Below are positions 7,986 to 56,218 of a stretch of 64,000 nucleotides of DNA, piece by piece (position 1 is the stretch's first letter; each line of letters opens with the position of its first letter). The stretch covers positions 448,001 to 512,000 of the forward strand of contig CAWKHF010000004.1 of the NCBI GenBank assembly GCA_963849325.1. The letters run 5' to 3'. Both the position numbers and the translations under genes were made by a program. The notes beneath the pieces were generated by a model, which saw only the letters and a list, made by a program, of their open reading frames with translations, did not search any database and was not told the DNA's origin. This stretch comes from an uncultured Planctomycetota bacterium (lineage in GTDB: Bacteria; Planctomycetota; Planctomycetia; Gemmatales; Gemmataceae).

Positions 7986-8349
7986 TTCGGTCGTAATCGA
8001 GACGGGGTTTCTCCCCTCCCTCTGGCACCAGGACGGGCCATTGGAAAGGATGAACTCCGGGCACAGGAGCTTCCTACGGATAACTCTCGTAGCCCGCGAC
8101 CGCAGCAACCCGCTGCAATTCCTTTCGGAAAAGGATGCTAGGGCTGGCCGCCACGAGATAGCGTTACCGTCCAGGCGGGAACTCGATCCACAAATATTCC
8201 CCCTCCACGCTGACAGGATGGGAGCGATGATTCCTTCGGAAAACCGCAACAGACAAAGAAGGAAGAAGGGAATAGGAGTCTCTGGTTCCGCCCCCGGAAG
8301 GCTTCCGAGAGGCAGGTGAAGTTTCACCCGCGAGTTCCGCGTCCAGGAA

Positions 8350-29019: not shown

Positions 29020-29276
29020 CCCACGAAGCCGCTGTCAAGGAAGGGCAGACGCAGAATGCTCCGATGTTCTTGCGGTAAGAAAGATAGGCATTGGCAGACG
29101 GCACGCGGAAGCGTGCCGCACCGGGAGGGGCTTTGGCCTGTGGTCCGCGATCTTCATCGCCCCGCTGCTCCCGATACAGAGCCGGTAGCCACGGGAAAGA
29201 GCCAGGGATCGTTGGTAGCGAATCCTTAACCATTTCCCGTCATAGTTCGGACCAGGACTAATTGCTGGTGACGGTG

Positions 29277-31004: not shown

Positions 31005-31139
31005 CCGTAGGTTGTTTGGCCTCGGCGGCAGCGTATGTGCTGGAGGTACGGGACTTCTTGTGTTTTATTAACGAATAGTAAACTTGTCTTATATATAGTT
31101 ATTATAGAGAGTATCGAGGTGCGAAGGAGCCCGCCTATA

Positions 31140-34100: not shown

Positions 34101-35669
34101 GGCAGCAGCATCACCACCAATGGCGGGGACATCTACCTGGGCGGCGGCACCCTTGACGGCTCCGATCATCCAACCGGGGCGGCCGTCGGCGATAACGTCG
34201 CATCGGGCATGAGCAGCGGCGTGTGGCTGTACGGGGCGACGCTCACCGCCGGCGCCGGCAATGTCAGCCTGTACGGCTCCGGCACCACCGGCCCGTTCGG
34301 CACTTATGACAACGGCATCCTGGTGTGGAATTCCAGCAGCATTTCCACGACGACCGGCAACATCACGCTGAACGGCTTCGGCTCGACTTCTCCCGGACCC
34401 GGTGTATGGGGCCATGACATCGGCGTTTTTGTCGATTCCTCCTCGCAGATCTCCACCGTCTCGGGGGCCGTCGGCATCACCGGCACCGGCTATGGCAATA
34501 TTGAGCTGGATCATGGGGTGGTGATCTCGGGCGATGTCCTCAGCACTGGCACCGGCAGCGGTGTCGGCAGCATCACCATCAAGGGCACCGGCTCGGCCCA
34601 TGCCATCGCCAGCAATGGCGTGGAGATACTGGCGGGCGCGAACATCACCTCGGTGGACGCCAATATCGCCATTACCGGCACGGCTCCAGGAAACACGGCC
34701 GGATCGGATAACAACGGCATTAATATCGGCATCGCCAATGATGCCGGCATCCAGAGCAACGCGGGCGGGGCCGTCATCGCCTCAACCGGCAAGGGCAACA
34801 TCATGCTGACCGCTACCGGCGGCGGCGATAGCGATATTGGAGATCTGTATTATTTCGGCGGCGCGCCCGGCAATGTCAGCACCATCGGCAATGCCGCGGG
34901 AACGGGCACCATCACCTTCAATGCCGACACGCTGCTCAACCCTCTCGACATCCAGGTGCAAACCGCCGGCCAGGTCGTCTTCCAGCCGCGCACCGCCTCC
35001 ACCACGGTTGGCGTAGCGGGAGGGGCTGGCACGCTGCAACTTACCAGCGGCCTCCTCAACAATATCACCGCCGGCGGCATCAGCATCGGCAACACGGCCG
35101 ATAGCGGCGCGATGAATGTCGGCGCGTATGCCTGGAATGCGCCCGTAAGCCTGCTCTCGGGCCGCGGCAGCATCGACATCGGCGGCGCTCAGGCGATGGG
35201 CGGCAATAGCTTCCTGGCCGATACCGTCGCGGGCAACATTACCCTGGATAGCGTCGCTTCGATCGCCAGCACGGCCACGGGCAACGCCATCACGCTGGCC
35301 GACAGCGGCGGCCATTTCCTCAACGCTGCCGGCAGCGATGCGCTCTGGGCATCCAAGGGCCGCTGGCTGGTCTATTCGACGACTCCGGCCGGGGACGTTC
35401 TGGGCGGATTGAACGGCACGTTCCTCCGCTTCTCCTGTAGCTATGGAGGTTCCTGCCCGCGTGTGCCTTCCACGGGCAATGGGCTGCTTTACCGTGCTAT
35501 GCTTCCCGGCACCGTGAGCAAAGGTTCCGGTGATCCAGTCCTCGGCCTGCCAGGCTTTCCGGTGCGGTTTCCTCCGGTCGGGCCAATGGACTTCGCCGAT
35601 CTCATTACGATGGATCATCGCATTGCCGCCGACCAGGCGTCACCGTTCCTGCTTGACGCTGGCCAATAG
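31140..35669 (+). CDS. TpsA filamentous haemagglutinin-family beta-helix exoprotein (start uncertain)
   Basis: AQA-NPQGGQV cleavage site, AVIDWRSFNI, LNRV, LVNPNG TPS domain, GGYVETSG, Gly/Asn/Thr repeats. Confidence 0.93.
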   Translation: MVNARHGFAPAAMHRNTALCSRAFFLLGVLGFSLPSPAQANPQGGQVAAGQASITSSGNTLNVTQSTDKAVIDWRSFNIAADERTAFHQPSSSAMALNRVNDLNPSQILGTLTANGHVVLVNPNGVFFGPSAKIDVAGLVATTANIANNDFLAGKLNFNQPGNPQAAIINQGTITAQEAGLVGLVAPVVENEGVITAKLGQVTLASGDSFTLDMAGDHLIEVAVTSELAQQLASNSGKIAADGGTVMLTAAAGRQLVDGVVSNSGAIEANSIGGTNGHIVLYAEGGNAVPGNVEADKSQVRGSSTAWSSGMLSASGSGSGAKGGTIEVLGDQVGLRSGSVLDVSGDAGGGTVRVGGDFHGQGTTPTALATVVQNGATINADARGAGNGGRVAVWSDSDTSFEGLISARGGLGGGNGGYVETSGKQILNMQGMVDASATQGQAGAWLMDPADAVIGSSDSNETGSAGSTSFTPDGTAATAFINAADIDASLNHGTSVTVATGGDSASGSGGGAITVASDIAKTAGSGATLTLSAATDIVVNNNVSISSTSGKLNTLFDANTAGNGGAIVLNPGATIASNGGDIYLGGGTLDGSGHPSGSAVGDAANPSGINLSYPILNSGSGNIVMSGTGYAGASGNDYGILMSGFEASPGVWTSGIMQTTTGNITLNGTGGNSTNSNYGVWLGVALVTTQNGAIAVNGAGAGNGYANYGIYNFVSSVQATGTGSITLSGTAPATGTFHGVGVDIEGTLGGSPVISSVNGNIAITGTGQGWANEDNAGITLYNNPSSTYYPSIYTTGTGHITLTGISGNGNPGIYARAGTVQIGGGSDSGNITLNADTLSLDDTATTAIQTSGTVLFAPYTAGATIGFSGGAGTLQVTQAILDAVNAPTVTVGSTSAGALTTGAFNWEHTLDNLNLIGGSVEVGGNITKGVDDASVANSASGTLTVQSNTDITQDSNAAIASSGSYGKLNTLFDADVAGGEGAILMNTGSSITTNGGDIYLGGGTLDGSDHPTGAAVGDNVASGMSSGVWLYGATLTAGAGNVSLYGSGTTGPFGTYDNGILVWNSSSISTTTGNITLNGFGSTSPGPGVWGHDIGVFVDSSSQISTVSGAVGITGTGYGNIELDHGVVISGDVLSTGTGSGVGSITIKGTGSAHAIASNGVEILAGANITSVDANIAITGTAPGNTAGSDNNGINIGIANDAGIQSNAGGAVIASTGKGNIMLTATGGGDSDIGDLYYFGGAPGNVSTIGNAAGTGTITFNADTLLNPLDIQVQTAGQVVFQPRTASTTVGVAGGAGTLQLTSGLLNNITAGGISIGNTADSGAMNVGAYAWNAPVSLLSGRGSIDIGGAQAMGGNSFLADTVAGNITLDSVASIASTATGNAITLADSGGHFLNAAGSDALWASKGRWLVYSTTPAGDVLGGLNGTFLRFSCSYGGSCPRVPSTGNGLLYRAMLPGTVSKGSGDPVLGLPGFPVRFPPVGPMDFADLITMDHRIAADQASPFLLDAGQ

Positions 35670-35794
35670 TCGTACCTCCGGTCAAAAGATGTCTGCGGAC
35701 GACGGAAGGTGTACCTTTTGTCGGAGTTCATCAATCGGCAGTCCTGCTTCACTTTATTGGTGACAAAAGGTAGGTGACAGAATATCCTCGCCGG

Positions 35795-36895
35795 ATGGAT
35801 GGCCAGACCGTCAACGTCGTAGGGTACGCCCGCATTTCTTCCGCCGATCAATCCGAAGACGGTCAGGCCGACGCGCTTCGCCGTGCCGGGGCGTCCCGGG
35901 TCGTCGTGGAGAAAGCATCCGGGGTCGCCGAGCGTCCGCTGCTGGATGAGTTGCTCTCGGGCCTGCGGTTCGGTGACGCTCTGGCGGTCACGGAAGTCAG
36001 CCGGCTCGGCCGCACGGTGCATGCAATCCTGCTGCTCGCCGATGATCTGCGACGGCGTGGCGTGCATCTCCGCATTCTGAACCTCGGCATCGACACTGGG
36101 ACGCCAGCCGGCGAGCTGGTGCTCACGCTGATGGCCGGCCTCGCCAAGTTTGAGCGCGATCTGCTGCGGGAGCGGCAGAGGCGGGGCATCGACGCCGCCC
36201 GCAAAAGAGGGAAACACCTCGGTCGTCCGCCGGCCCTGACGGCCGACCATGCGGAGACAGCGATTAGCCGGCTTCAGACAGAAAGCCTGGCGGTCATCGC
36301 CAGCGAATGGCGGGTTTCAGAGCGGACGCTTTCCCGCCTGGTGAAGAAGCATGCCGGGGACAGACCCTTGCCGCTCGCGCCCGGCGGAAAAGGGAAGGCG
36401 AAGCGGCGGGGACGGATTAACCAGACTGGAGTAATACCGATGGACAACTTGCTTACCATTTCTTTGGAAGCCCAAAACCCCGACCGAAACCATCATCGAC
36501 GCTACGAAATCCGGCTCGGCCGCGATCTCTTCGGCCAGTGGACGGTTGGTCTGCTCTACGGCCGCGTGGGGCGAGCGGGCCAGATGGTGCGTCATTCCGG
36601 TCCCGACCCAAAACGGCTCCGGCAGGTCATCCACGAAAGTCTGCGTCGCCGGCTCTCCGCACCCAAGCGGATCGGCTGCCCGTACCAGTTGATCGGGTGG
36701 AGCGCGGCTGCGGATATCGACATCGGCTTCTGGCTTCCGGCGGACACCCTGGCGGCGTTCGTCCCACCGACCGCCGTCCACAGCAGCGGGGACTCGCATG
36801 ACGAGTGCCGATCAGGGTCTGCGAGTTCGCCGGTTTCGGGGCGGTCACGCCGGACTTTCCCCACAGGCACAGCTCGCCTGGCTCCCCGCGGATAA
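35795..36895 (+). CDS. Resolvase/invertase in frame with a WGR-like domain (internal start at 36440)
   Basis: GYARISS, SRLGR, AKFER..RERQ..GRPP, HTH; then MDNLL..RRYEIRLGRDLFGQWTV..YGRVG. Confidence 0.85.
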   Translation: MDGQTVNVVGYARISSADQSEDGQADALRRAGASRVVVEKASGVAERPLLDELLSGLRFGDALAVTEVSRLGRTVHAILLLADDLRRRGVHLRILNLGIDTGTPAGELVLTLMAGLAKFERDLLRERQRRGIDAARKRGKHLGRPPALTADHAETAISRLQTESLAVIASEWRVSERTLSRLVKKHAGDRPLPLAPGGKGKAKRRGRINQTGVIPMDNLLTISLEAQNPDRNHHRRYEIRLGRDLFGQWTVGLLYGRVGRAGQMVRHSGPDPKRLRQVIHESLRRRLSAPKRIGCPYQLIGWSAAADIDIGFWLPADTLAAFVPPTAVHSSGDSHDECRSGSASSPVSGRSRRTFPTGTARLAPRG

Positions 36896-40767: not shown

Positions 40768-40967
40768 TGGCGATCAACCCGCGCCTGCAACACGAGACGG
40801 CTTTTGCCCTGGCCACCGCCTTGCTCGACCTCGTGCGCAACTGCATCCGTGAAGAGGAACGGCGGGATGCGTTCGCGGCGTTTTACGAAGCGTGCCGGGC
40901 CGGGATCGAGGCCCATGACGTTCGGCGACAAAGAATGCAGACACGACTGCACCCCTTTAACAACTGA
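40767..40967 (+). CDS. Small hypothetical protein
   Basis: Translationally coupled; MAINPRLQHETAF... Confidence 0.65.
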   Translation: MAINPRLQHETAFALATALLDLVRNCIREEERRDAFAAFYEACRAGIEAHDVRRQRMQTRLHPFNN

Positions 40968-40980
40968 AACGGAGGAAACC

Positions 40981-42699
40981 ATGTACAAGGCTCTGCGTTG
41001 TCTCCTGATTCTCACCGTGCTGCTCCTGGCGTACCTGGCCGTCCTGGTGCTTTACCAGGTGCCCTACGCCTGGCTTCTGGCCGCCGGCATCGGCGTCGTA
41101 CTGCTGTACCGGAAGACCTACCGCTACACCGCCTATGGCACCGCCCGCTGGGCGGACGCCACCGACATCTCGCACCTGCTCGAAGGCAACGGCCTGATCC
41201 TCGGCCACATCCAGGGCAAGCCGGACAAATCGCGCGGCACCCTGGCGCTGTTCGACCGGAACCTTCCGGCGCGGGCCGCCTGCCAGAAGTTCCTGATGGC
41301 GTTCCAGCGGAAGCCGCCCAAGTTCCTGGTCCGGCTGACCAAGGCCGTTCACACCGCGATCTTCGCGCCGACGGGCGTGGGCAAGGGCGTATCGTGCGTC
41401 ATCCCGTTCCTGAAGACGTGCCCCGACAGTTGCGTGGTCGTGGACTTTAAGGGCGAGAACTACCTGGAAACGGCCGCGGATCGTCGGCGGATAGGGCACA
41501 AAGTCGTCCTTCTCGATCCGTACCGGATCGTCACTCACGAGCCGGACACTTTCAACCCGCTTCAGTTTATCGACCGGGAATCGCCTACCGCCATTGACGA
41601 GTGCCGCGACCTGGCCGAGGCGCTCGTGGTCCGGACGGGTCAGGAGAAGGACCCGCACTGGAACGACTCGGCGGAGGTTTGGATTTCGGCCATGACGGCG
41701 GGTGTTGTGGCCTTCGCCTACGACGCCGACAAGTCGCTGCAATCGGTTCGGAGAGTGCTCACCGATCCGCAGCGGATGGAAGCGGTCATCAAGCTGTTGT
41801 GCGAATCGGACGTATGGGACGGGATGCTCGCCCGCCTCGGCGGCCAGCTGACGAATTTCAAGGACAAGGAGCTGTCCTCGACGCTCACGACCACGAACCG
41901 CTTTATGCGGTTTTTGGACACCATCGCGGTCGCGGAGAGCACCAGGCAGAGCAGCTTTAACCCGGCCGACCTGCTCACCGGCAAGATGACCGTGTACCTG
42001 GTCCTGCCGCCCGAACACATGCGGGCACAGTCGCCGCTCTTGCGGCTGTGGATCGGCTCTCTCCTCCGCGCCGTGGTCCAGGGCGGCTTGCAGGAGAAGA
42101 CCAAGGTGCATTTCGTCCTCGACGAGGCGGCCTCCCTCGGCCACATGGAGGCCCTCGACGACGCGGTGGACAAGTTCCGCGGCTACGGGGTGCGGCTCCA
42201 GCTTTACTACCAGTCCATCGGGCAGCTCCAGAAGTGCTGGCCGGATGGGGGCGCCACGACCCTGCTTTCCAACACCACGCAAGTGTTCTTCGGCGTCAAC
42301 GACCCGCAGACCGCGGGGTACGTTTCGTCCCGGCTCGGCGAGGAGACGATCATCGTGGAGAGCGGAGGGACCAGTTCGAGCACCACCCGGCAAGCCTCCC
42401 AGCAGGGAAGCGGCAACACCAGCCATTCCACCAGCACCAACGAAAACTGGCAGCAGATCGGCCGGAAGCTGCTCAAGCCGGAAGAGGTCGAAGCGCTTGA
42501 TCCGCGGGTGGCGATCACGTTCGCTCCCGGCACGCCGCCCATCTGGACCTGGCTGGTCCGGTACTACGAACACGATTTCGGCCGGCCGCAGGGCTTGGGG
42601 CCGGTGAAGGCCGCCTTTGACGCGGCGTGCCTGTTCCTGGCGGCCGGCCTGCTCTCCGTCTGGTGGACGGCGGCGCTGTTCTACCACACCTTCCAGTGA
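40981..42699 (+). CDS. virD4: VirD4/TraG type IV coupling protein
   Basis: Two N-terminal TM segments, YGTARWA, APTGVGKG, VDFKGEN, FVLDEAASLG, QSIGQL. Confidence 0.93.
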   Translation: MYKALRCLLILTVLLLAYLAVLVLYQVPYAWLLAAGIGVVLLYRKTYRYTAYGTARWADATDISHLLEGNGLILGHIQGKPDKSRGTLALFDRNLPARAACQKFLMAFQRKPPKFLVRLTKAVHTAIFAPTGVGKGVSCVIPFLKTCPDSCVVVDFKGENYLETAADRRRIGHKVVLLDPYRIVTHEPDTFNPLQFIDRESPTAIDECRDLAEALVVRTGQEKDPHWNDSAEVWISAMTAGVVAFAYDADKSLQSVRRVLTDPQRMEAVIKLLCESDVWDGMLARLGGQLTNFKDKELSSTLTTTNRFMRFLDTIAVAESTRQSSFNPADLLTGKMTVYLVLPPEHMRAQSPLLRLWIGSLLRAVVQGGLQEKTKVHFVLDEAASLGHMEALDDAVDKFRGYGVRLQLYYQSIGQLQKCWPDGGATTLLSNTTQVFFGVNDPQTAGYVSSRLGEETIIVESGGTSSSTTRQASQQGSGNTSHSTSTNENWQQIGRKLLKPEEVEALDPRVAITFAPGTPPIWTWLVRYYEHDFGRPQGLGPVKAAFDAACLFLAAGLLSVWWTAALFYHTFQ

Positions 42700-43403: not shown

Positions 43404-43571
43404 ATGCTGTTCGCCGCTACCCTTGGCGAGCATTGCTTCAACCTGATGCTCGCCCTGTTCCTGCTCTTGGCCTTCGCGTTCAAGATCCTCACCGCCATCG
43501 ATGATGACGGCGCGATCAAGAAGACGGCCAACGAGGGCATCGCCGCGTGGATCACACGTTGGCTGAAGTAA
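43404..43571 (+). CDS. 55-aa membrane peptide with similar architecture to the preceding one
   Basis: GAGGAGG RBS; MLFAATLGEHCFNLMLALFLLLAFAFKIL...EGIAAWITRWLK. Confidence 0.7.
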   Translation: MLFAATLGEHCFNLMLALFLLLAFAFKILTAIDDDGAIKKTANEGIAAWITRWLK

Positions 43572-43773
43572 CCCACCAGCGCGGGGTGCGCCCAGCCCCG
43601 CCTCTTCGTTCCGGAGCGGTGAGATGGCGTGGCTCCTGTTCCTTGTCCTGTACGGTGCGCCGCGGAGCGGGGTAGTGGATGACGTGGCGGATGCTGCGAA
43701 GTAGTGTGTGATCCGCTTCTTGATCCACTGGCTGAAGTAGCCGAGGCGTGTCTCGTTTTTCAGGGGGTGCGGC

Positions 43774-44034
43774 ATGACCGTTGAGGAAAGGCTGGAGCGC
43801 ATGGAGGCCATGCTCGCCGCCCTGGTCGAGCGGCAGACCGCGCCGGAGTGGTATACCACGGAGCAAATCGCCCAACTCGTCGGCAGGGCCGAGTTCACCG
43901 TCCGGGAATGGTGCCGGCGCAGGCGCATCCAGGCACAGAAGAAGGACAGCGGTCGCGGTGCCCATGCCTCGTGGGTCATCTCCCATACCGAGTTGCTGCG
44001 TTACCAGCGCGAAGGTTTGTTGCGTAGTCGCTGA
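43774..44034 (+). CDS. Excisionase-like HTH protein (candidate recombination directionality factor)
   Basis: WYTTEQIAQLVGRAEFTVREWCRRRRI..WVISHTEL. Confidence 0.8.
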   Translation: MTVEERLERMEAMLAALVERQTAPEWYTTEQIAQLVGRAEFTVREWCRRRRIQAQKKDSGRGAHASWVISHTELLRYQREGLLRSR

Positions 44035-44136
44035 TCCGCAACGCCACGCGCGACCTGATCTTCCCCTCTGGTGGGGAGCCGTGGAGCGTGCGCGCTCATC
44101 GAGGATTTCTTGCCCTGGTAGCGGTGGTTTCCCGTC

Positions 44137-44361
44137 ATGTCTCGAAGCAATCGAAAGAAGGATTGTCAAGTCGCGGAGGATGCTCGACCGGGCATCGTTC
44201 CGGCCGAGACACCGGATTGGATCACACCGGAATTGATCGCAGCGACGATTCGCGTCTGGCAACCGTACTACCCAGCTACTCTCACGCCCGAAGAAGCCGT
44301 TACAATGATCTTGAACGTGGGTCGCTTATTGGACGTGCTATCTTCGGGGGCATCGCCATGA
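44137..44361 (+). CDS. Small hypothetical protein coupled to the recombinase
   Basis: PDWITPELIAATIRVWQPYY; ATGA overlap with the recombinase start. Confidence 0.65.
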   Translation: MSRSNRKKDCQVAEDARPGIVPAETPDWITPELIAATIRVWQPYYPATLTPEEAVTMILNVGRLLDVLSSGASP

Positions 44362-45896
44362 AACAGTTCGTCGCGTTGGCACGGGTGAGCAGTCGGGAAC
44401 AGGAACGCGAGGGCTTCTCGCTCGAAGTACAGGAAGAAGCGCTCCAACGCTACGCCACGCAGGCCGGTGGCGAAATCGTCAAGCTCTTCAAGATTGCCGA
44501 GACGGCCAGCAAGGCCGATGAACGCAAAACCTTCCGCGAGTTGATCGCCTACGCCAAGAAGAATGCACCCTTCCTCGATGGCCTGCTCTTCTACAAGGTA
44601 GACCGGGCCGCTCGCAATCTCTTCGATTACGTCGAGCTGGAACGGCTGGAATCGGAATACGACCTGCCGTTCATCTCCATTTCGCAACCGACCGAGAACA
44701 CGCCCGCCGGCCGCATGATGCGGCGGACGCTGGCTAACATGGCCAGCTTCTACACCGAACAGCAATCGGTCGATGTCCGCGAAGGGCTGGCTCGTCGCGT
44801 GCAAGAAGGCTGGTTCGTCGGCCCCGCTCCCTACGGCTACCGCAACGTCCGCAAGGATGGTCGCGGCATCATCGAGATCAACCCGGAAGCCGCTGCCAAC
44901 GTCCAACGCATCTTCCATCTCTACGCCTACGAGAACGTAACGCTCGATGGCTTGGTGGCGCGGGTCAATACCGAGGGCCGCGTCTTCCGTCCCTCGCAAC
45001 CCCGGTTCCCGCGCAGCATGGTCTACACCATCCTGAAGGACCGAGCCTATATCGGTGAAATCCTCCACAAAGGCCAATGGTATCCGGGCAAGCAGCAACC
45101 GCTGATCGACCGGGCGACCTGGGACCGCGTGCAGGCGTTGCTGGGCGGGCATATCTATCAGTCGCACACGCTGACCTATGCCAGCGGCCTGATTCAATGC
45201 GGTCATTGCGGGCATCCGGTTACCGGCGAGAAGGTCAAGAAGAAGACGAAGACGAGCGAGCGGTTCTACACCTACTACCGTTGCACCGGCTACACCAAGC
45301 CGGGGCATCCGCGTATCCGGGTTACGGAAGCCGATCTCGACCAGCAAGTGCTGGCCGTCTTCGACAAGATGCGTGTGGAAGACGAAGGGGTGCGTGACTG
45401 GTTCCGGCTGGTGCTGGCCTCGCAGACGCGCAATGCGCAAGCCCAATCGCTGGCTCAACGCGGCGAGCTTCAGCGTCAAGAGACGTTGTTGGTGCAGCAG
45501 CAGGATCGCCTGCTCAACCTGCGGTTGTCGGAGGACATCGATCAGGAGACGTTCGCCCGCAAACATACGGAGTTGCGGGATCGATTGGCTGCACTCAAGC
45601 TGCGACTGGAGACCGTGGATCGCTGCCACGACGAAACGGCCGAGTTAGCGGCAAAAGTGTTTGAACTTTCGCAAACCTTGCGTCAGCAATGGCTTACGGC
45701 CGATTATGCCGCCAAGCGTCGCATCCTGGAAATCGTGTTTTTGAACTGCTGTCTCGATGACATAACTCTTGTCCCCACCATGAGAAAGCCCTTCGACGTT
45801 CTCGCCGAAGGGCCGCTTTTGGAAAAAAGCGGAGAGGACGGGATTCGAGTTGAGGGCGAACGCAAGTTCTTACCGGAGGAGGTGGTGCGACAGTAA
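44358..45896 (+). CDS. Large serine recombinase (integrase)
   Basis: ARVSS catalytic motif, KVDRAAR, APYGY, CGHCG/YYRC zinc ribbon, coiled coil. Confidence 0.95.
   Translation: MKQFVALARVSSREQEREGFSLEVQEEALQRYATQAGGEIVKLFKIAETASKADERKTFRELIAYAKKNAPFLDGLLFYKVDRAARNLFDYVELERLESEYDLPFISISQPTENTPAGRMMRRTLANMASFYTEQQSVDVREGLARRVQEGWFVGPAPYGYRNVRKDGRGIIEINPEAAANVQRIFHLYAYENVTLDGLVARVNTEGRVFRPSQPRFPRSMVYTILKDRAYIGEILHKGQWYPGKQQPLIDRATWDRVQALLGGHIYQSHTLTYASGLIQCGHCGHPVTGEKVKKKTKTSERFYTYYRCTGYTKPGHPRIRVTEADLDQQVLAVFDKMRVEDEGVRDWFRLVLASQTRNAQAQSLAQRGELQRQETLLVQQQDRLLNLRLSEDIDQETFARKHTELRDRLAALKLRLETVDRCHDETAELAAKVFELSQTLRQQWLTADYAAKRRILEIVFLNCCLDDITLVPTMRKPFDVLAEGPLLEKSGEDGIRVEGERKFLPEEVVRQ
45830..45848 (-). 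other. tRNA-Ser-like 3' fragment at the right attachment junction
   Basis: Minus strand TCGAATCCCGTCCTCTCCG = T-loop, T-stem 3' strand, CCTCTCC acceptor strand and discriminator G; no 5' tRNA half is adjacent. Confidence 0.7.
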
Positions 45897-46546
45897 GTCG
45901 CCGTCTGGGCAGCGTTTGCGATTGGTCAACAGCGCTCACCGACGTTCGCGGACTCTCAGGAATGGTCAACGGGATTGGCCCACTGGGCCAATCCAGGCCG
46001 ACGACTTGGCACCTCCATCTTGGCCAACTGTTTCCGCCCGTCCCCGCCCCGTGCCCTTGCGGCCCTGCTCAACCATCCGCAGTTGCCCAACGCCCTGCAC
46101 CATGAAACCGCCGCGGCCGCGCCGCCTGCGGCACCGATCCGTACGACCGTGCGTGCTGCCTGCCAACACCTCGGCCATGCCTGCGGGGCTGCCTGGCAGC
46201 GGGTCCGGAGTGCCGGCGCAGCCGGGCTGGGGCGGGCCGTCCAGCACAGCCCTTTCCTGGCGGCAGCCGCCAAGCGACTCTGTCGTTGCCGGCGTGGCCT
46301 GCGGTGGGCGTGCGGCGTGGGTCTGGCCACGGCTGGGATCATCGGCTAGGCAGGACCGTGGCTGGGCTTAACCGTCGGCTTCCTGGCCGGCCTTCTGCTC
46401 ACGCTGGCGGTGCAGGATCGGCACCACCTGCGCCCGTGGTTCTCTACCGGGGGCGCCGGCGATTGAGCCGGCCACGCTGTCCGGTTCCCTGGGCCTTGCC
46501 CCCGGTTCTCCGGCACCTGCCCTTTCGCCCTTTTTTGGAAAGTGGC

Positions 46547-46650
46547 GGCACGTTTGTAACGTGCCGTACAATCCAACACGTTGAAAACGTGTTGCCACAT
46601 TTTGTTAGTGCCTCTTATCCAGTACGAAATCCAGTACAACAGTACAACCC
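46547..46650. promoter_or_regulatory. Twin palindromes CACGTT-N3-AACGTG plus CAGTAC direct repeats
   Basis: GGCACGTTTGTAACGTGCC at 46547-46565; AACACGTTGAAAACGTGTT at 46575-46593. Confidence 0.45.
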
Positions 46651-47774: not shown

Positions 47775-49277
47775 TTACTCCGCCGCCTGGGACGTCGGTT
47801 GGGTTGCAGGTTTGGATTCAGGTTTGGCGATACGTCCATCCGGTGGTTTGGCGTCGCGATCAAAGATCCGGCGCAGGTCAAACCAGCCGTCGTGGTCCAC
47901 CAGCAGAAGCGGCGCATACGCGGGCGGAGGATTGTGCGGATGAAGGGACACTACGACCCGCGCGCCGTCCTTCGACGTGGTTGGCCAGATCACGTCGCGC
48001 GTGGACGTTCGCGCCGGAATCATCCAGTAATCGCCGCGGCGAAAGAGGCGTGGTATCCGGTTGTTCTGGTCCTTGCCGACCGGAGTGTTGTCGAACCGCA
48101 CCTGGACGCCATCGCCCAGATCGATCCATTTATTATCGCCGAGCGTTACCCATTTGGGTTTATGCTGCCATCGCCGCAAGAGCGGGTGCTTGGGCGCCGT
48201 CGGCAAGGTCATGCTGCTACCTTGCGTGTCCAGAACAATTGTCCCCTCGTGCAGGTCCACGTCCTTGACGCGGAGAAACGGCCGGGCCGGGATCGGTTTA
48301 GGCTCGGTCATGCGCAGCGCGTAGGCGTCATCGACAAATTCCACCCAGTCGTTGCGGTGGAGGGTGGGACGTGGACCGCCTGCCGAGCCGAGGAGGTGGA
48401 GCGTAAGGATGCTCTGCGAACCGATGTTCGTGTTGTCGGGTATGACGACGGGAAAGATGGCCGAGGCGTTGTCGGGCGCCCACTTGAAGGCAAATTGATT
48501 CCGGTCAGGCTCGACAGCATGGATCTCGACCCGGAACAACTGATTGTCCGCGCCGCGATAGCCAAACTCCGCATCCGAGGCGCAGAGATCCTGTTGGTCG
48601 GTCTGCTCGTTCCGCTGTCTCACCTGAGCGGCCATCCGTCCGGGGTACTTGCGACGCCGATTGTGATCCAGCAGCACCTTCTCGAACGCTTCGAACTCCT
48701 TGACCGTTAGCGCCTGGGTTGCATCCTTGACGGTGGCAATGAAAGGGTCGATGGGATTATCGAGTTGGAGGAGCTTGACTTGCCAGACCACACGGGTGCG
48801 GGTGGTCGTGTCGAGGTGGCCCAAGGCGGGGTCCTGAACCAGCGGGTCGAAGGCGACGCCGGCTGTCGCGGCGTCGCCGGCTTCGTAGCCCGACAGCTCG
48901 CGGAGCCAGACCTCGGCATACACCAGATACGGCGGCTTGCCCACGGGCGGCACGGGAAAATCGGGCTGGGTACCGTAGTCGGGCTGAGCACTGTAGTTCG
49001 TCAGCCGCTCGTTCTCACAAAGCAGGCCGTCCACGCAATAGTGGCCGGGGGAGATTTGCAGATCGTCCGGCTTGTCCATGGGCTGGATCTGAAATTCCCT
49101 GGCACTGGGTCCCCAGTGGGGGCCACGCAAGTCGCGGGCCAGTTGCCTCAGCCGGTACAGCTGGATCGCCGCCTGCTCGTTGAAGTCGGCGTCGAGCAGC
49201 ACGCGGCCTTGCTGCAGCACCACCTGGAGATAGTGGTTGCGGCGGTGGAAGCTATCGCGTGACAGGTCGGCGGACAT
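47775..49277 (-). CDS. DUF6519-type eCIS-associated protein
   Basis: MSADLSRDSF..VVLQQGRVLLDADFNEQ, GYRGADNQLFRVEIH, GDYWMIPART. Confidence 0.85.
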   Translation of the reverse strand: MSADLSRDSFHRRNHYLQVVLQQGRVLLDADFNEQAAIQLYRLRQLARDLRGPHWGPSAREFQIQPMDKPDDLQISPGHYCVDGLLCENERLTNYSAQPDYGTQPDFPVPPVGKPPYLVYAEVWLRELSGYEAGDAATAGVAFDPLVQDPALGHLDTTTRTRVVWQVKLLQLDNPIDPFIATVKDATQALTVKEFEAFEKVLLDHNRRRKYPGRMAAQVRQRNEQTDQQDLCASDAEFGYRGADNQLFRVEIHAVEPDRNQFAFKWAPDNASAIFPVVIPDNTNIGSQSILTLHLLGSAGGPRPTLHRNDWVEFVDDAYALRMTEPKPIPARPFLRVKDVDLHEGTIVLDTQGSSMTLPTAPKHPLLRRWQHKPKWVTLGDNKWIDLGDGVQVRFDNTPVGKDQNNRIPRLFRRGDYWMIPARTSTRDVIWPTTSKDGARVVVSLHPHNPPPAYAPLLLVDHDGWFDLRRIFDRDAKPPDGRIAKPESKPATQPTSQAAE

Positions 49278-49290
49278 CGCAAGCTCCATG

Positions 49291-51531
49291 TTAGTTAGGG
49301 AGATAAATAATCTGGACCTCGCTGCCGGCCGGGGTGAACTCGTCAACCCAGGCACGCAGGTAGTCGCGGCGCTGCGCGAAGTAAGCGTCGTGGAAGGCGC
49401 CCATCTCGGACTGGTCGCTAGCGCCGCGGCGCAGCTCCGCGGGGCCATCGACGTCCAGCAGCGCATATTCCGGATCGCCGTAGCGGCGGCTGCGGAAGCG
49501 CGGCCGGACGTGCGCCTCGATGACCGCCTTGTCGTCGCCCTTGTCTTCGCACTGCGGCGATGCAAGCGCGAGGTCCGGCTGACAGCGGTAGCGCGGCAGG
49601 GGCGTCTTGCTGGCGGGCGGTACGTAGCAAAAGTGGAAACAGCCCTGGCGACGCCGGGCCACGAAGACGCGGCCGGCGAATAGACAATCTTCGGCCAGCT
49701 CCACGGCGTGGACTTCGACGCGGCCAAAAAACGTCGAGCGCTCGGCCAAAAGCCGCACGAGAGCGGCCGCGCAGTCGGGACTGCCCAGCGCGGGGCAGGG
49801 GCCGCCAGCGTCATCGACGATACTATCGCGCACGGTCAGCGGCGGAGGCTCGCCTGTTCGCGTCGGCCCGCCCTCGCGCCCTTGCACCGAGATGGCGCCG
49901 ACGATGCTCCGCTCGATCGCCACGCTGCCTTCCAGGCCGCGCAGGATCAGCGTCGGCCGGTGCTTGAGCTTCGGCTTGCCGCACGCGCCCAGCCCATTGC
50001 CCGGCACGATCGTGCAATCGCGGATCGTGACGGCCTCCAAAGGTCCTCGCAGCACGAGCGGCCTGTCGCTGATCAGCAATCCGTTGAGCACAAGGCGGCC
50101 GCCCGTTTGGTCCTTCGGTCCCGGCTGAAAATGGCCGCCCTCACCGGGCGATCCCAACAGCACCAGGGGGTGGCGTCCCAGGGTAGCGCGGATTTCGATT
50201 GTTTTCTCCGCCGGGACCGTCAGCGGTTTGTCCAGATGAAACGGCCCGTCGTCGAGGAGCTCGATCACCGCATGCTTATGCTTCTCGGCGGCACACGCCG
50301 CAAGCGCATCAGCAAGGGTTTCAAAGATGGTTTTCCCTGGCCGCGCGTCTTTGGGGGCCTGCGCCGGAAACCCGTGGGTGAGCACGAACGCATGGCAGGC
50401 GGCCGCGGGCGTGTCGGCCGACCGAAAGTAATCGCCGCCGCCGATGTCGAATGGTACGCCGGTGTAGTAGCGGACCCACAGTGGCGGCGCTTGGTGAACA
50501 TTCTGGTCCAGGCCCAGCGCGATGCGCCCGCTCTCCGGATCGACGGCGACCTCGTTGGCTTTCAACCGGACGGGGCGGCGCAGATCGGCCGGCACGATGC
50601 GCTCCAGCGGCACCGGCCCGTGGGCGAGGTCGCCCTGCCAGATGAGCAGGCTCTTGCCGGGGCCGTAGAAATCGCCCTTGTGATCGCGGAAGTCGCGCAG
50701 CCGGATCGGTGCGGGAACTTCCGCTTCGCGCACGGGCCGGTCCAGGTCCGGCGGCCCGAGCAGCCGGCGCACCAGCGGGACGGGATTGCCCAGGGGGCTG
50801 AACGTGTAATCGTGCCGCCGTTCGTCCGGCCGGCAAACGCCGCGGTCGGCGCCGTTGTCGATACAGCAAGCTGGCGTTTTACCCCAGCGAGCGGGGCGCA
50901 TCGTCCAGACGTAGAGACCGACGCTGGTCATCTCGCCTCGCCCGCCGGCCGTCGCCCCGCGCAGATCGACCGTCCGCGTCAGCGTGGCGAATGGCCCCAT
51001 GCCGCGGTCGAGCTCATCGTGCCGGCGGAGATCGACGAGCCGGCCGCGCTCCGGGTGCGGATAGTTGAGCGCGAAAAAGACGGCGGTGCGGTCGCGCAGC
51101 TCGACGGCGTGTCCGGCCCAGCCGCCGACGTCGCGGACCAGCGCCTCCAGCACGGCGAGCGTGCCCTTGCGGCGGCGGTAGGCGAGCGTGTTGGCGATGG
51201 CCCGCCGCTGTAAGAGCAGGGCCAGCCGCCGCCGGCCACGCGCGCTGTCGAGCTTGTCCGGCCTATCCGGCGCCGGCGCCGCGAGCGCCGCCGTCCCCAA
51301 CAATGCCGCGACGTAGGCCACTGCCCAGGGATCGCACGTCTCGATGAACCAGTTCTCGTACAGCCGCGCGATGTCGTCCTCGACGACGTTGACCTGCTCC
51401 GCCACCACGCGGAGCAGGGCGCGGAGCGGCTGGCCCGTGACCTGATCGCGTGCGCGGATGGTGGCCGGCAGCAGATCGTACAGCCGATCCAGTCGTTCCG
51501 CGCCCGGCCGATAGGTGAGCACCGCGCTCAT
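49291..51531 (-). CDS. eCIS tail/baseplate protein (P2 gpI-like N-terminus)
   Basis: LYDLLPA..RARD, LYENWFIETCDPWAVAY, RRRKGT, C-terminal SEMGAFH..EFTPAG. Confidence 0.85.
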   Translation of the reverse strand: MSAVLTYRPGAERLDRLYDLLPATIRARDQVTGQPLRALLRVVAEQVNVVEDDIARLYENWFIETCDPWAVAYVAALLGTAALAAPAPDRPDKLDSARGRRRLALLLQRRAIANTLAYRRRKGTLAVLEALVRDVGGWAGHAVELRDRTAVFFALNYPHPERGRLVDLRRHDELDRGMGPFATLTRTVDLRGATAGGRGEMTSVGLYVWTMRPARWGKTPACCIDNGADRGVCRPDERRHDYTFSPLGNPVPLVRRLLGPPDLDRPVREAEVPAPIRLRDFRDHKGDFYGPGKSLLIWQGDLAHGPVPLERIVPADLRRPVRLKANEVAVDPESGRIALGLDQNVHQAPPLWVRYYTGVPFDIGGGDYFRSADTPAAACHAFVLTHGFPAQAPKDARPGKTIFETLADALAACAAEKHKHAVIELLDDGPFHLDKPLTVPAEKTIEIRATLGRHPLVLLGSPGEGGHFQPGPKDQTGGRLVLNGLLISDRPLVLRGPLEAVTIRDCTIVPGNGLGACGKPKLKHRPTLILRGLEGSVAIERSIVGAISVQGREGGPTRTGEPPPLTVRDSIVDDAGGPCPALGSPDCAAALVRLLAERSTFFGRVEVHAVELAEDCLFAGRVFVARRRQGCFHFCYVPPASKTPLPRYRCQPDLALASPQCEDKGDDKAVIEAHVRPRFRSRRYGDPEYALLDVDGPAELRRGASDQSEMGAFHDAYFAQRRDYLRAWVDEFTPAGSEVQIIYLPN

Positions 51532-54500
51532 GGTTTCCTCCTGCGCAAGACCAGCGTGGCCGGCACTTTGGCCGACAGGTAAGCCAGCTCCGCCGCCACA
51601 AACTTCGCGTTCGCCGCGTCCCAGCGGGCCGCCTTGACCGGGATGGTCGCCGGTACCTCGACCGGCTTGCTCGCCTCTTGCGCGGGCGGCTGCGGCGGAG
51701 CGGCGGGCGGTTTGGCGTCGTCCGCGGCAGGCCGCCGCTCCGCCATACCCTGAATCTTCTCGGTGATCTGGTCGGGAGTCAGCACGTTGTCGTTTTCATC
51801 TCGTTCGGGGATGGCGCCGAACAGGTCGAGGTGAGCTGCGCGGACACCGGCGACACCCTGGACGGCCGCGAGGATGGGGCTGGCGTAAACATCCTGCGCC
51901 GGCTGGCGGTTGTCGAAACCCAACAGCGACAGGAGACTTTTCTGCACGGCCGGCCGGACCTTGTCCCATTCGTAGTCCGAGTCGATGGTGAGGGTGACTT
52001 CCAGTACGATCAACAGCAGCCGCCGTGGAGCCAGCACGACGGGCAACTCGGGGTCGCCGAACTTGTGCAGCGATTGCAGCAGGTTATCGAACAGGGCCGA
52101 GCCGGGCAGCTGGTTATCGTCCTGGGCGGCGACGGTGACGTGGACGCGGAAGGCGCCGGCGGCGGCGAGGCGGACGGCGCGGGCCTTGGCGATGCCGGCG
52201 TAGGCGCGGGCGAAGTCCTCATAGTCGGCGACCGAGACGAGCCGTTCCAGCGCGGTCAAGCCGGTGGGGGTGTTGCGGCGAGCCTGGGCGAGTGGCTCGC
52301 GGTCCGCGCCGCCGGCGGCCGGCAGCGGGTTGACGACATCCTTGACGCCCGGCGGCCGGTCGCCCAGCTGCGTGATCTGCTTGGCCTTGACGTTGCCGGC
52401 CTGGCCCAGACCGGCGCGGTAGACGGCCCGAATATTCTCCACCCCGGTCGCCGGCCGCGCCCCCTGTCGGCCGTCGCCGAACTGAACCGTCGCCCCACCC
52501 TGCTCGTCGGTGTACACGGCATAGACGCGGTCGTCCGGCCCGGACCCGGTTAGCCGCTCGACCTCACGCCAGAGTACGTCGTTGACGCGCACCTCCAGGG
52601 TGTCGGCCGCCCCGCTGGGTCGCACGGCGGGCAGATAGGTGAGCGGCCCTTGCTTGAGGGCGAAGCGCTGGCGCGGCTTGGAGGCGTCGCCGTTGCCCAT
52701 CACTTCGCGCTTGCTCTCGCCATGCGTGGCGTGGGCGACGTTGCCGTAGACGGTGACTGTGTCGCGGCGATATGCGAACTGGAGTTTCTGCTGCAAATGC
52801 ACGATGGTATGCGGGCGGGCGGTTGTCCGCGTCGGCCCCTGCGGCCCTGGGTTGGTGGGGTCTAGACTCGGGCTGGTGGCGTCCAGGCTCTGCTCGACGC
52901 TGGCGATGGCGACCAGCTCCGCATCGCGGACGCCGCGCGTGCCGGGCAGATCCGTCCGCTCTCCCTCGATCAAGAGCAGCCGCTTCGCCTCCAGCCCGTC
53001 GATCAGCCCGTCCAGCTGCAAGAGATCGCCGAAAACGTCGGCGTCGTAAGGCTCCTCGGCCAACTCCTGCGGCTCGCCCTGTACCAGCACCGACGTGCCG
53101 CGCAGCGCCGCCAGCGACGAATCGGTCGGATTGAGCCAGGGCGAATCGAGAAGCAGGCGCGTGACCTTGGCCGAGATGCCGAAGCCGACCTCGGCTACCG
53201 CATCGACTGCTTCGACGCGGTAAATGTCGGGCGCCGTCATCCCGGGTTGCGGCTGCGCATGCTGGATCGCGATGTGACTGCCCGGTGCGATCTTGTCATA
53301 CGTCGCATCCAAGGCGAGCAGGCGGCGGCGCTCGGGTAACAGCGGAAACTCCAGCTCGCCCGAGATGAGATAGACGTCGGGCCCCTCCTTGGGGGATCGG
53401 ACGAGCGTAATCCGGCCCATAGGGAGTTCCAGGGTTCTTCGGGTAGGCCGGTTGAAGGGAACAGCGGGCGTGTTATCGACGGCGAACGTTAGCTGTTCTC
53501 CGGGCATAGTATCTTTGATAACGCGGAGACTATACGTTACGTCCTGACTTTTGAAGGTCACAGTAAGGCCCGGAGTGTCCAACGTCACGGTAACTTCGAT
53601 GCCGTTGGGGAATTGCTCTGGTTTTGGGGCCGAGGGATTAACCTTCTTTGTAATGACGTCCTCCGGAGGACCAATCGAGACTTGCGGCACGATGGGTTGG
53701 GTGGAAGAAGTGTTCACGGCTTCGATCGCGAAGGGAGTCAGCGCCAACGGCCACTCGCGAGTGATCGTAATGGGATTTTGATTCGCCCCGTAACCGAGAA
53801 CGATGGTCCGAGGCGGAGCCGAGCTTCCGAAGGGGGCGGCGCTCGCACGCAGCACCTCCACGTTCGGCAGGGACTCCGGCTGGGACAGGGTCGCGTTCGC
53901 CACGGCGCTGGGAATTTTTCCTTCCACCTGCGGATGCAGCGCCTGGAACACCTGCCCGGCCGCGCCGGACTGGATGCCCTGCTTGGTGAGAAAGAGATCC
54001 TTGAGCGTCGGCTCGGGGACCAGCTGCGCCGGTGGTGGCGTCACAAGGGTCGAGAGCAGTGTGTTGAATTCGTCGGCTGTATTCCGGGTCGGCCCCGCCA
54101 GAGCTTTAACGATTCCATCCAGACGCGAGCCTCGGTCGGGCTGAAGCTGCTGCGTCACGCGGTTGGCGTAGACCTCCGCCTCACCCAGCGACAGGGGGTA
54201 CGTCTCCAGAAACCGCTGCAACGCGGCGACCAGCGTGTCGAACCAGGGCTTGATCCGTGGGAACGCACCATCATCGAAAAAGGCTTCCTCCCGACGCCAG
54301 GCCACTAAAACGGCTGTGCCGTTAATCTGCTGCATCACCAGACGCAACGTATGAGGCACTTGGTAAAGCCGGAGGACGCGTACCTGAACCATCTCGTCGC
54401 CGATCGGCTTGTTCAGCGCATTAAGCAGGGTACTGAGTTCGCCCGAAGACAACGTCTTGACCACCGCATTAAACGACTGGATGGAATGGAGGAAGGCTTT

Positions 54501-56218
54501 CCACGCGTCCTTGATTCGCTTGACAATCGCTGTCGCCTGCTCAATGTCGCTCAGCTTATTCAGCCCTTCGCGAGCATTCTTCAGAGTGTTCTCCAGCAAC
54601 ACGTAGAGGGATTCCACGAGCAAGGTGAGAGGCGAAGTCCTGTCATCCCCGACGACCAGGCGATCCGTCAAGACGGGCAAGGCTTGTTGGATCAACTGGG
54701 AGAGATTCGCAGCGCCTGGCGTCTCTTTTTCTCGAATCGCACTGTAGAGGGGTTGGCGGACCTGGTCCGCGATCCGCTTGAAGGGCTTCGTGTTTTCGAT
54801 TGCTCTCAGCAACTCTTTCCGGAAATTCCGTTGGATCGCGTCGGTCAGCACGCCCTGTTGCTGCCGGTAATTCACAACGATTGTTGCCATGCGGTCGGCG
54901 CGGTTGGTGAGGTTATCGAATTGGGCAACGGTGGCGGTTCGCTGAACGTCCCGCAACAGCCGGAGTGCCTCGGCTGTGGCCGCGTCAAAGGCGTTGGGGG
55001 CGGGCGGCGAGTCCAGCACCGCGCGGAGCCGCTGTAGCCCCTGATCGGCCCGATTCGCGAGAGACAGATACACCGTGAACGCCTGCCCATCCGCTCCGTA
55101 GCCGGGCAAGTTAAAGCGCTTGTACTTCTCGACCGCCTGCTTGATGGCCTGGAGCGGGTCCGGGGTCTGCGGGTCGAGCGCCTTTGCGAGATCCGTAATG
55201 AGCACATCAAACGGGGGACATTCCGCCTGCCCGATCCACTTCTGAGCCGAAAGGAACCCCTCGAAGATGGTCCGAACCTTCTGCTGTTGTGCGCTTGAAC
55301 CCTTCGCCGCATCGCTTAAATGGCTCACTCCGTCTGTGACTTGCTGAGCCACGGTAACGTCGCGCTGGAATCCCAGTTCGGGGCGGCTGTCGTAGTCATT
55401 AAGGGCGGTAAGCAAATCGCCCAGGTTGATGTCGGGTTGCGCGGGTCGGGCGGCCGATGCCAGAGTTCCATCCGAACCGTGGTCAACCCCGCGGTGGCAT
55501 CGGGATTCGCCTCCTTGACGCGCCACAGCTCTCCCGGCCGCTTATCAAACACGAGCAGCAGTGGGTCGTTGGGTTTGAGGTTGGCTGTGAGGCCCTTCAA
55601 ATACAGAGCGCGTTCGGCCAGCTTGCGGCCTTGTCCGGTGTCCTCGAAGGTCGGCAGGCGGCTTTGCAGTGGGTGCATGGCGCTCCACTCGGCCCGCGCT
55701 TTCAGGTCCTCCACGGTCTCGAACGTCTGCGCCGTCTCGCCCGGATTGGGGACGCTCTTGGCCGACTGCCCTTTGCGGATCGTCGTCCGCGCGTCCTTGT
55801 CCAGCGTGAATGCCAGGTAGACATCCGCAGCCACGCCGGGGCGCGGCTGATAGCCCACCAGGCGCGCCAGCTCGCGGATTGAGCGATAGTCGCGCGCCGT
55901 CGGCAAATACCCCTCGTTGGCCAGGCGCTCCTGGTAAAACGTCAGCACGTCCGCCACCATCGCCCAGGCGTCCAAAAGCGCGATGGACCAGTCGTCCTCG
56001 GCGCGGGCCGTGAGATTCTTAAGGGGGTTGGGCGTAACGGGAAACGTCAGCCCCGTCAGCTCGGCCTTCATGGTCGAAAGGAAGTCGGCGTACGCGCCGA
56101 CGCGGTAGGCCAGCTCCGTCTGGCCGGGCAGGTTAGCGACGGAGCGCGGCGTGCGGACCTCGGTCCCGGCACAGCAGTCGCAATCGCGCGGTCGCTCCTC
56201 GGGCCGGGACGGGGTCAT
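51528..56218 (-). CDS. eCIS baseplate assembly protein (baseplate J-like) with a large insertion; frameshift near 55460
   Basis: LLDAWA..ADVLTFYQERLANEGYL, GYQPRPGVAA, VYGNVAHATHGE, FGDGRQGARP, RLVSVADYEDFA. Confidence 0.85.

Follow-up and report, generated by a model that had tools for sequence, protein, structure and literature searches.

A planctomycete serine integrase whose reading frame appears to leave its mobile element through a tRNA 3′ tip

The recombinase gene and its element

The window of this study, by which we mean the whole stretch of 64,000 nucleotides analysed, comes from an uncultured planctomycete of the family Gemmataceae (GenBank assembly GCA_963849325.1, contig CAWKHF010000004.1, positions 448,001 to 512,000 of the forward strand; the genome is hereafter called G000 and this contig C4). 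Its subject is a large serine recombinase (LSR) gene at the right end of a conjugation-related element of about 38 kb. An earlier inspection of the letters (the original prediction) had proposed that the crossover of the element lies inside this gene, that the C-terminus of the enzyme is therefore set by the integration state, and that the two isoforms might control directionality, a suggestion which is speculation. The right end of the element is laid out as follows:

44358–45896, + strand: LSR open reading frame (ORF), 512 aa as it stands in the chromosome, recognized by its Pfam domains
45827–45830, + strand: AAGC, the end of the Lys490 codon plus the Ser491 codon AGC; likely LSR crossover at the tRNA 3′ tip, from identity to the copy on contig C6 and from unoccupied sites
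45829–45848, − strand: orphan 3′ end of a tRNA-Ser(GCT), 20 nt (acceptor strand, T-stem and half of the T-loop), matching at 20 of 20 nt; antisense reading (S)GEDGIR
45849–46040, + strand: probable remnant of the left end of a second island, from homology to genome G003; source of the final 15 codons, VEGERKFLPEEVVRQ, and of the stop codon

The product carries three Pfam domains in resolvase–recombinase–zinc ribbon order, all above the curated cut-offs, which marks it as an LSR: PF00239 Resolvase (E = 1.5e-22, residues 5–151), PF07508 Recombinase (E = 4.2e-12, residues 176–262) and PF13408 Zn_ribbon_recom (E = 1.7e-10, residues 276–334). Its start, MKQFVALARVSSREQ, resembles the usual catalytic-serine motif R-x-S-S/T-x-x-Q. 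Between the ends of the element, of which the left one is only bracketed, Pfam also identifies a TrwC relaxase (25522–28218, E = 1.4e-72) and a type IV secretion system coupling protein (40804–42699, E = 7.9e-68), a combination that, together with the integrase, characterizes integrative mobilizable or conjugative elements; ParA- and ParB-like genes are present as well. The element is more likely mobilizable than self-transmissible, since the 33 ORFs scanned did not reveal a complete mating-pair apparatus. Two more elements with this LSR reside in G000, one on contig C6, syntenic with window positions 8380–45848, and one at the start of contig C1.

The frame runs out of the element into an orphan tRNA end

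The sister copy on C6 is 99% identical to window positions 43500–45848 by BLAST. Compared base by base, the two copies are identical up to 45834, agree at 10 of the next 14 bases and are unrelated past 45848, and close homologues in other genomes align only up to LSR residues 491–498 of 512. On these two comparisons, the last 15–21 codons of the LSR and its stop at 45894–45896 lie outside the element. The stop thus lies 47–62 nt past the end of element identity, and the frame crosses the crossover in the manner of phage Mx8 (see below). The foreign tail amounts to about 21 aa, six codons from the tRNA fragment followed by 15 from the neighbouring DNA, instead of the 15-aa host tail that had originally been put forward. 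ARAGORN found no tRNA in the window.

The origin of the tRNA fragment and its flank is illuminated by G003, in which positions C71:5095–5285 match window positions 45827–46017 (69% over 192 nt, E = 4.8e-14). There, the same tRNA-Ser fragment is contiguous with the next ~170 nt, after which comes a frame-shifted gene with a PF07508 Recombinase domain; no LSR of the present family was found in G003 upstream of fragment and flank. Fragment and flank are thus most likely one unit, namely the left junction of a second island type that enters tRNA-Ser in the T-loop, and since G003 holds them contiguous without this LSR, the boundary 45848|45849 would be the junction of that other island. On C6, where the tRNA-Ser(TGA) is intact, the LSR frame enters it in antisense and ends as ..SGGGGI*, the stop TGA being the T-loop read backwards. 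The C4 and C6 copies part exactly at the first difference between the two tRNA-Ser sequences, as they should if in both copies the tRNA part comes from the host.

Position of the crossover

Most sites without this LSR carry the bases in question. The tRNA-Ser(GCT) sites without this LSR read AAG|CGGAG in three of four cases (G002, G007 and G008) and AAAAA|CGGAG in G009, and both empty tRNA-Ser(TGA) sites read AG|CGGAG; occupied sites have ..AAAAAG|CGGAG. A crossover in the T-loop would leave a displaced copy of the last 20 nt of the tRNA at the far end of the element. No such copy was detected for the C6 element, either in the 80 kb upstream (≤5 mismatches in 24 nt) or genome-wide (≤3 mismatches in 20 nt), for the two elements of the complete genome G027 in 100 kb upstream or genome-wide, or at the left end of the window between 7000 and 9000, where a far-end repeat of the kind known from DsiB islands is thus missing. 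The lack of a displaced repeat, together with unoccupied sites that have the same (A)AG, therefore argues for a crossover at the tip rather than in the T-loop, and AAGC at 45827–45830 is most likely the place, the exact position being deduced from the alignments. The original prediction was accordingly right in putting the crossover inside the ORF, but its location, at ..GIR|V, is probably about 19 nt too far to the right and, judging from G003, most likely marks the junction of the other island. The junction in the excised circle would read ..AAAAAG|CCGTAATT.. with a crossover at the tip and ..GATTCGA|ACCAGAAG.. in the earlier version.

A family that reads antisense into tRNA genes

The LSR belongs to a family of 734 proteins at E ≤ 1e-10, whose source names point to Planctomycetota. 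In seven of the seven near-full-length close genomic homologues (L018–L022, L036 and L044), an antisense tRNA gene (Pro, Ser or Ala) holds the end of the frame; the integrase thus sits at the edge of the island and overlaps, in antisense, its target RNA gene at the 3′ end, as in the DsiB islands. Among 120 listed family proteins, 92 stop within 5 aa of the conserved Ser and 20 continue through the tRNA (..IRT..), while 7 have other tails and 1 lacks the motif; the modal length of the family is 496 aa. A set of 80 metagenome loci, 62 of them usable, gave the same picture, with a tRNA that starts exactly at the tip in 41. The C6 comparison, the tRNA endings of all seven homologues and these 41 of 62 loci bear out the central claim of the original prediction, namely that the LSR frame crosses the attachment site and that its C-terminus is set by the integration state.

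The 21 metagenome loci without a full tRNA deserve a separate account. The tRNA-like stretch stops at 21–24 nt, in the T-loop, in ten of them and at 35–48 nt, in the anticodon arm, in seven; in the remaining four it stops at 69 nt (two loci), 12 nt and 4 nt. The sequences past the breaks are mutually unrelated, and neither the helicase end nor a second recombinase gene was found downstream of the orphan fragments in the metagenome loci. The T-loop and the anticodon arm are the usual entry points of other tRNA-targeting islands. Since breaks cluster in both, they cannot both be the site of the present enzyme, and we read them as later insertions that moved the tRNA body away from the integrase. 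The T-loop is named as an island entry point in PMC3146451. At one metagenome locus (L191:5470–5560), an inverted copy of a recombinase 3′ end comes immediately after the 3′ end of the LSR.

Another feature of the family lies just upstream of the tip:

45788–45814, no strand: inverted repeat GCCCTTCG..CGAAGGGC in the last conserved codons (RKPFDVLAEG), read from the sequences

In every family member inspected, 16 nt separate this repeat from the tRNA tip. It may act as a bidirectional terminator or form the outer part of the P arm.

The left end of the element

The left end is less sharply defined than the right one and involves the following features:

7956–7988, no strand: interval holding the left junction (attL) of the element, bracketed by homology; best candidate AAG|C at 7977–7980, originally TCGA|A at 7968–7972
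7237–7985, + strand: host-side glycosyltransferase gene, broken by an in-frame stop at 7600–7602 and a frame change near 7770, from the ORFs and from intact paralogues of 234–241 aa
7872–9479, − strand: 3′ part of the element's large SNF2-like helicase gene, reading on through the left end, from the ORFs and comparison with other copies
7981–8319, + strand: translated frame that would follow Ser491 in the excised circle, RNSVVIETGFLPSLWHQDGPLERM..., 112 codons and then TGA at 8317–8319

Homology of the helicase end among the six helicase-bearing elements of G000 stops near 8380, and the host glycosyltransferase is homologous to its intact paralogues only to about 7955; the best local match between the left ends of the C4 and C6 elements, which is not significant, starts at 7990. 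Because the glycosyltransferase homology reaches ~7955 and the local match starts at 7990, the element would extend to the left of 8380, with attL within 7956–7988. Within this interval, AAGC at 7977–7980 matches AAGC at 45827–45830, and AGC is an in-phase Ser codon in both. The left partner originally proposed, 7972, is thus in the correct phase and off by no more than about 10 nt, but it relies on a 4-nt TCGA match, with the end of the element bracketed to 7956–7988. The present stop of the glycosyltransferase, TAA at 7983–7985, would come from the element.

A comparison of the left ends of the three LSR elements of G000 yielded no significant local alignment and, with MAFFT, no common block, and no direct or inverted repeats of note were found at the element ends. 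When the downstream flanks of tRNA-Ser(TGA) and tRNA-Ser(GCT) were traced from relatives to G000, they mapped to C1 and C12 at places with neither a tRNA nor an element end; for the elements of G027, relatives have no tRNA at the syntenic place that would serve as an empty site. Three look-alikes picked out by eye at or for the left end were dropped, being no better than shuffles or absent from C6: CTCCGGGCACAGG, ‘DGPLERMNSG’ as the end of an old integrase, and CGAGAGG at 8303 as a mimic of the tRNA tip with a mirrored CGCGAG.

The helicase frame has lost, by a 1-nt difference, a stop near 8351 that is present in the C6 and C7 copies. Both the helicase (7872 to ~15000, − strand) and the glycosyltransferase are split over several frames, owing to indels in the assembly or to decay of the genes. 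Six elements of G000 (on C4, C5, C6, C7, C1 and C10; 75–81% identity) have the helicase 3′ end in common, and only three of them have the LSR. The C10 copy sits 1.4 kb from a tRNA-Asp, which suggests the same element backbone with a different integrase.

The predicted tail of the circular form

Since 7972 and 7981 are in the same phase, both candidate junctions give the same circle frame, with no stop until the TGA at 8317–8319. The phase and the arithmetic of the 115 codons originally counted from 7972 are correct, but the predicted tip junction gives 112. This tail matches no Pfam family, and no homologue was found in 60 related genomes (best non-self E-value 0.005) or, as weak evidence, among the longer proteins of a set of 5.8 billion. 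A stretch in G055 (contig C113) was considered as a homologue and judged to be noise, in view of its E-value (0.014 per genome), in-frame stops and poor DNA alignment. The C6 sister element, whose LSR is 97% identical, is predicted to yield an unrelated tail of 32 aa at its tentative left junction. The check that had been proposed, conservation of the left-end frame in related elements, thus gave a negative answer both in the 60 genomes and on C6.

The tail frame has a weak coding signature, its GC content by codon position being 0.56/0.53/0.65 as compared with 0.64/0.40/0.75 for the LSR, and the strand opposite to it is also open, as the helicase frame, with which it shares the wobble position. 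The original prediction had allowed that such a frame may arise by chance in GC-rich DNA. This holds in so far as a frame open for at least 116 codons starts at 20% of arbitrary + strand positions of the window, yet the same is true, from the junction, of only 1.5% of shuffles of 7972–8380. Taken together, the comparisons make it most likely that the long circle tail arose without selection, as a by-product, and is not a regulated isoform; for this window, the long tail is probably no real isoform.

Interpretation and alternatives

On balance, we lean towards a reading in which the crossover takes place at the tRNA tip inside the integrase frame, the element has no stop codon of its own, and the circle tail is a by-product without selection. 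In this planctomycete family of serine integrases, the attachment site would lie at the tRNA 3′ tip and within the integrase's own frame, so that the element would supply codons 1–490 and the start of Ser491 and no stop codon. After insertion, the frame would run antisense into the tRNA and usually end five codons further on, at a TGA provided by the T-loop (TTCAAAT read backwards), the usual outcome being the 496-aa form. The target in the window would have been a tRNA-Ser(GCT), the T-loop of which was split by a second island, later or beforehand, such that the LSR would now read six codons of the 20-nt orphan tRNA end and 15 of the left end of its neighbour. Excision would carry the frame into the left end of the element, most likely via the shared AAGC (45827–45830 with 7977–7980), and the frame would stay open there over 112 codons. 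As far as gene geometry goes, the dependence of the C-terminus on the integration state is real and applies to the family as a whole.

Several observations weigh against this reading. The proposed attL and attR share just 4 nt, and the left junction at 7977–7980 relies on this match and on the bracket; the left ends of the C4 and C6 elements are not significantly similar (top local score 22; median 20 and 95th percentile 24 under the null); no empty site for the window turned up in 40 relatives, in which a search with both flanks recovered only glycosyltransferase paralogues and repetitive extragenic palindrome (REP)-like repeats; and the many broken frames in the assembly make ORF lengths unreliable. 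Others of these contrary points speak for the original prediction as a whole, according to which the enzyme cuts at a TCGA resembling the T-loop, a 20-nt copy of the tRNA end belongs to the element itself, the site is palindromic and not a tRNA, and the 115-codon tail is a second isoform that serves direction or stability. Indeed, TCGA is common to 7968–7971 and 45845–45848, and the flanks joined at TCGA form a near-perfect 17-nt palindrome, GCCCTCGA-G-TTGAGGGC, which is what the attB of a serine integrase can look like. Ten of the 21 fragment loci break in the T-loop, and the openness of the tail frame exceeds what composition predicts (p = 0.015, corresponding to the 1.5% of shuffles). Moreover, PMC3146451 already describes serine-recombinase islands, those of the Dehalococcoides DsiB type, which insert in the T-loop of tmRNA with a 20-bp repeat that is embedded in the integrase gene. 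We nevertheless hold a T-loop cut by the present enzyme to be quite unlikely. Fragment and flank occur in G003 without this LSR, C6 diverges exactly where the tRNA-Ser sequences first differ (45834 being the last identical base), none of the three elements tested has a displaced 20-nt repeat, the anticodon-arm cluster of breaks cannot be the site of this enzyme, and the tail has no homologues.

Alternatively, the crossover may well be at the tip and the tail specific to the circle may nonetheless be functional: a short conserved helix encoded by the left end would be present on the free form only and would tune integration and excision or stability, in the manner of Mx8 IntP/IntX. This is unlikely, though not to the same degree as a T-loop cut. 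Two independent family members with non-tRNA tails, L181 (..SRGDKTAIELFLAGLLGWEAGLLRRL..) and P0003 (..SREFRSPVELFLASVAEWDGDVVRL...), share a collinear tail of the form ..I/VELFLA....W....R.., which BLASTP aligns without gaps (31 of 56 identities; p < 0.0005 when only the tails are shuffled). The first ~25 residues of the window tail marginally resemble both (shuffle p = 0.03 and 0.04, two values that are not independent), which also counts against regarding that tail as a mere by-product. Clear cases, however, number only two (three with P0055) among 120 proteins and 62 loci, and the P0055 tail has no relative in a large database, where it retrieves P0055 itself only. The tail shared by L181 and P0003 may instead stem from a host site common to both; the genes that come next in L181 are AddAB-like and point towards the recombinase. 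Furthermore, the C6 sister would yield an unrelated tail, and the window frame continues some 80 codons beyond the point where family tails stop. A more specific form of this idea, which we consider rather improbable, would have the free circle alone produce a version of the enzyme that bears an additional C-terminal helix (the ELFLA..W tail of L181 and P0003, faint at 7981–8060) and the inserted copy produce a clipped 496-aa enzyme, the pair acting as a sensor of the integration state that biases the reaction towards integration when the element is free and against re-excision when it is inserted.

It may also be that the element is stranded, the orphan tRNA end and the broken neighbours being signs of decay, so that no excision takes place at this site and neither tail matters. 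The body of the target tRNA is indeed gone from the locus, the neighbouring island is down to ~190 nt, and many frames in and around the element are broken. Against this, the LSR frame is intact over 497 conserved residues, the last 3 kb match a second copy at 98–99% identity, which hints at gene conversion or recent activity, and the 20 nt that are left amount to a half-site, roughly the length that a serine integrase requires to one side. We therefore regard a stranded element as very unlikely.

Relation to known systems

An attachment site within the integrase coding sequence is described in PMC6070905 for IntP/IntX of phage Mx8, a tyrosine recombinase: integration makes a new 3′ end of the gene, and the altered protein is active with a changed site preference. 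Both systems have attP in the integrase gene; the Mx8 enzyme belongs to the other superfamily, and here the change comes from insertion at a tRNA tip and from antisense reading of the tRNA. In mycobacteriophage BPs and its relatives (PMC4557955), attP is inside a gene whose product is altered at its C-terminus by integration. In contrast to the present case, that gene is the repressor, and the BPs integrase is a tyrosine recombinase. The integration switch of BPs has been tied experimentally to protein stability.

Among serine recombinases, the closest parallel is provided by the ssrA islands of Dehalococcoides, which PMC3146451 presents as integrative mobilizable elements with a CcrB-like serine recombinase, DsiB, at the edge by a tRNA-like 3′ end, and as tandem arrays built by accretion, with the att repeat embedded in the integrase gene. 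Compared by description, the two differ in that the DsiB islands, in the same source, insert midway in the T-loop of tmRNA and have a 20-bp direct repeat at the far end, whereas here no such repeat was found and the apparent target is the tip of ordinary tRNA genes. The integrases of phiC31, Bxb1, A118 and SPbeta share with the window LSR the three-domain architecture and a gene at the element edge by attP. Unlike the window LSR, the classical phage serine integrases have attP outside the gene and target protein-coding genes.

Serine integrases are valued as tools for their tight control of direction, which is thought to rest on a coiled-coil and a separate directionality factor. A C-terminus rewritten by the enzyme's own reaction would, if true, be a further layer of control and one that can be tested at the bench. 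As for annotation, the proposed arrangement would explain why hundreds of such genes seem to end in tRNA genes, why 496 aa is their prevailing length, and why some of them are followed by orphan tRNA ends. A tRNA-targeting LSR family also contradicts an older statement, in a 2014 database paper (PMC4383910), that serine-family integrases were not known to target tRNA genes. Our literature search, which covered mostly titles and the starts of abstracts, returned no paper on a serine integrase frame that reads into a tRNA or on a tail that changes on integration.

Other features of the element and its surroundings

A small gene directly 5′ of the LSR may be of relevance to its regulation:

43774–44034, + strand: small HTH_17 (excisionase/MerR-like) gene, Pfam PF12728, E = 2.1e-8

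From its position, the product is a candidate directionality factor. The cargo of the element includes, at 29262–35669 (+ strand), a two-partner secretion (TPS) pair: the transporter is of the ShlB/POTRA_2 type, and its partner, a TPS-domain protein of 1544 aa, contains internal repeats. At 35774–36895 (+ strand), the element also encodes another serine recombinase, which is small and fused to a WGR domain (Resolvase E = 1.6e-36, WGR E = 5e-6).

The third LSR copy of G000 is cut by a contig border, the start of C1 (positions 1–45) lying inside its last codons; this end is 91% identical to a copy in G004 that abuts tRNA-Ser(GCT). The end of contig C9 (487349–487438) coincides exactly with the tip of a tRNA-Ser(GCT), and C9 and C1 are probably neighbours that were split at this repeat.

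To the right of the element, a palindromic REP-like repeat of ~80 nt (46538–46618) has at least seven further copies in G000 at 93–99% and copies at 75–84% in relatives of the genus; a similar hairpin follows gene ends on C1 and C12. Further on (47775–58277, − strand), several large genes in a row encode DUF6519 and Baseplate_J domains and together resemble a contractile-injection or phage-tail-like system. G000 also has dense arrays of 7–14 tRNA genes, at C4:433741–435175 (13 kb to the left of the window), C1:515629–516193 and C12:838476–839555. Mobile elements often carry such arrays, and some of the tRNAs in those of G000 have unusual T-loops.

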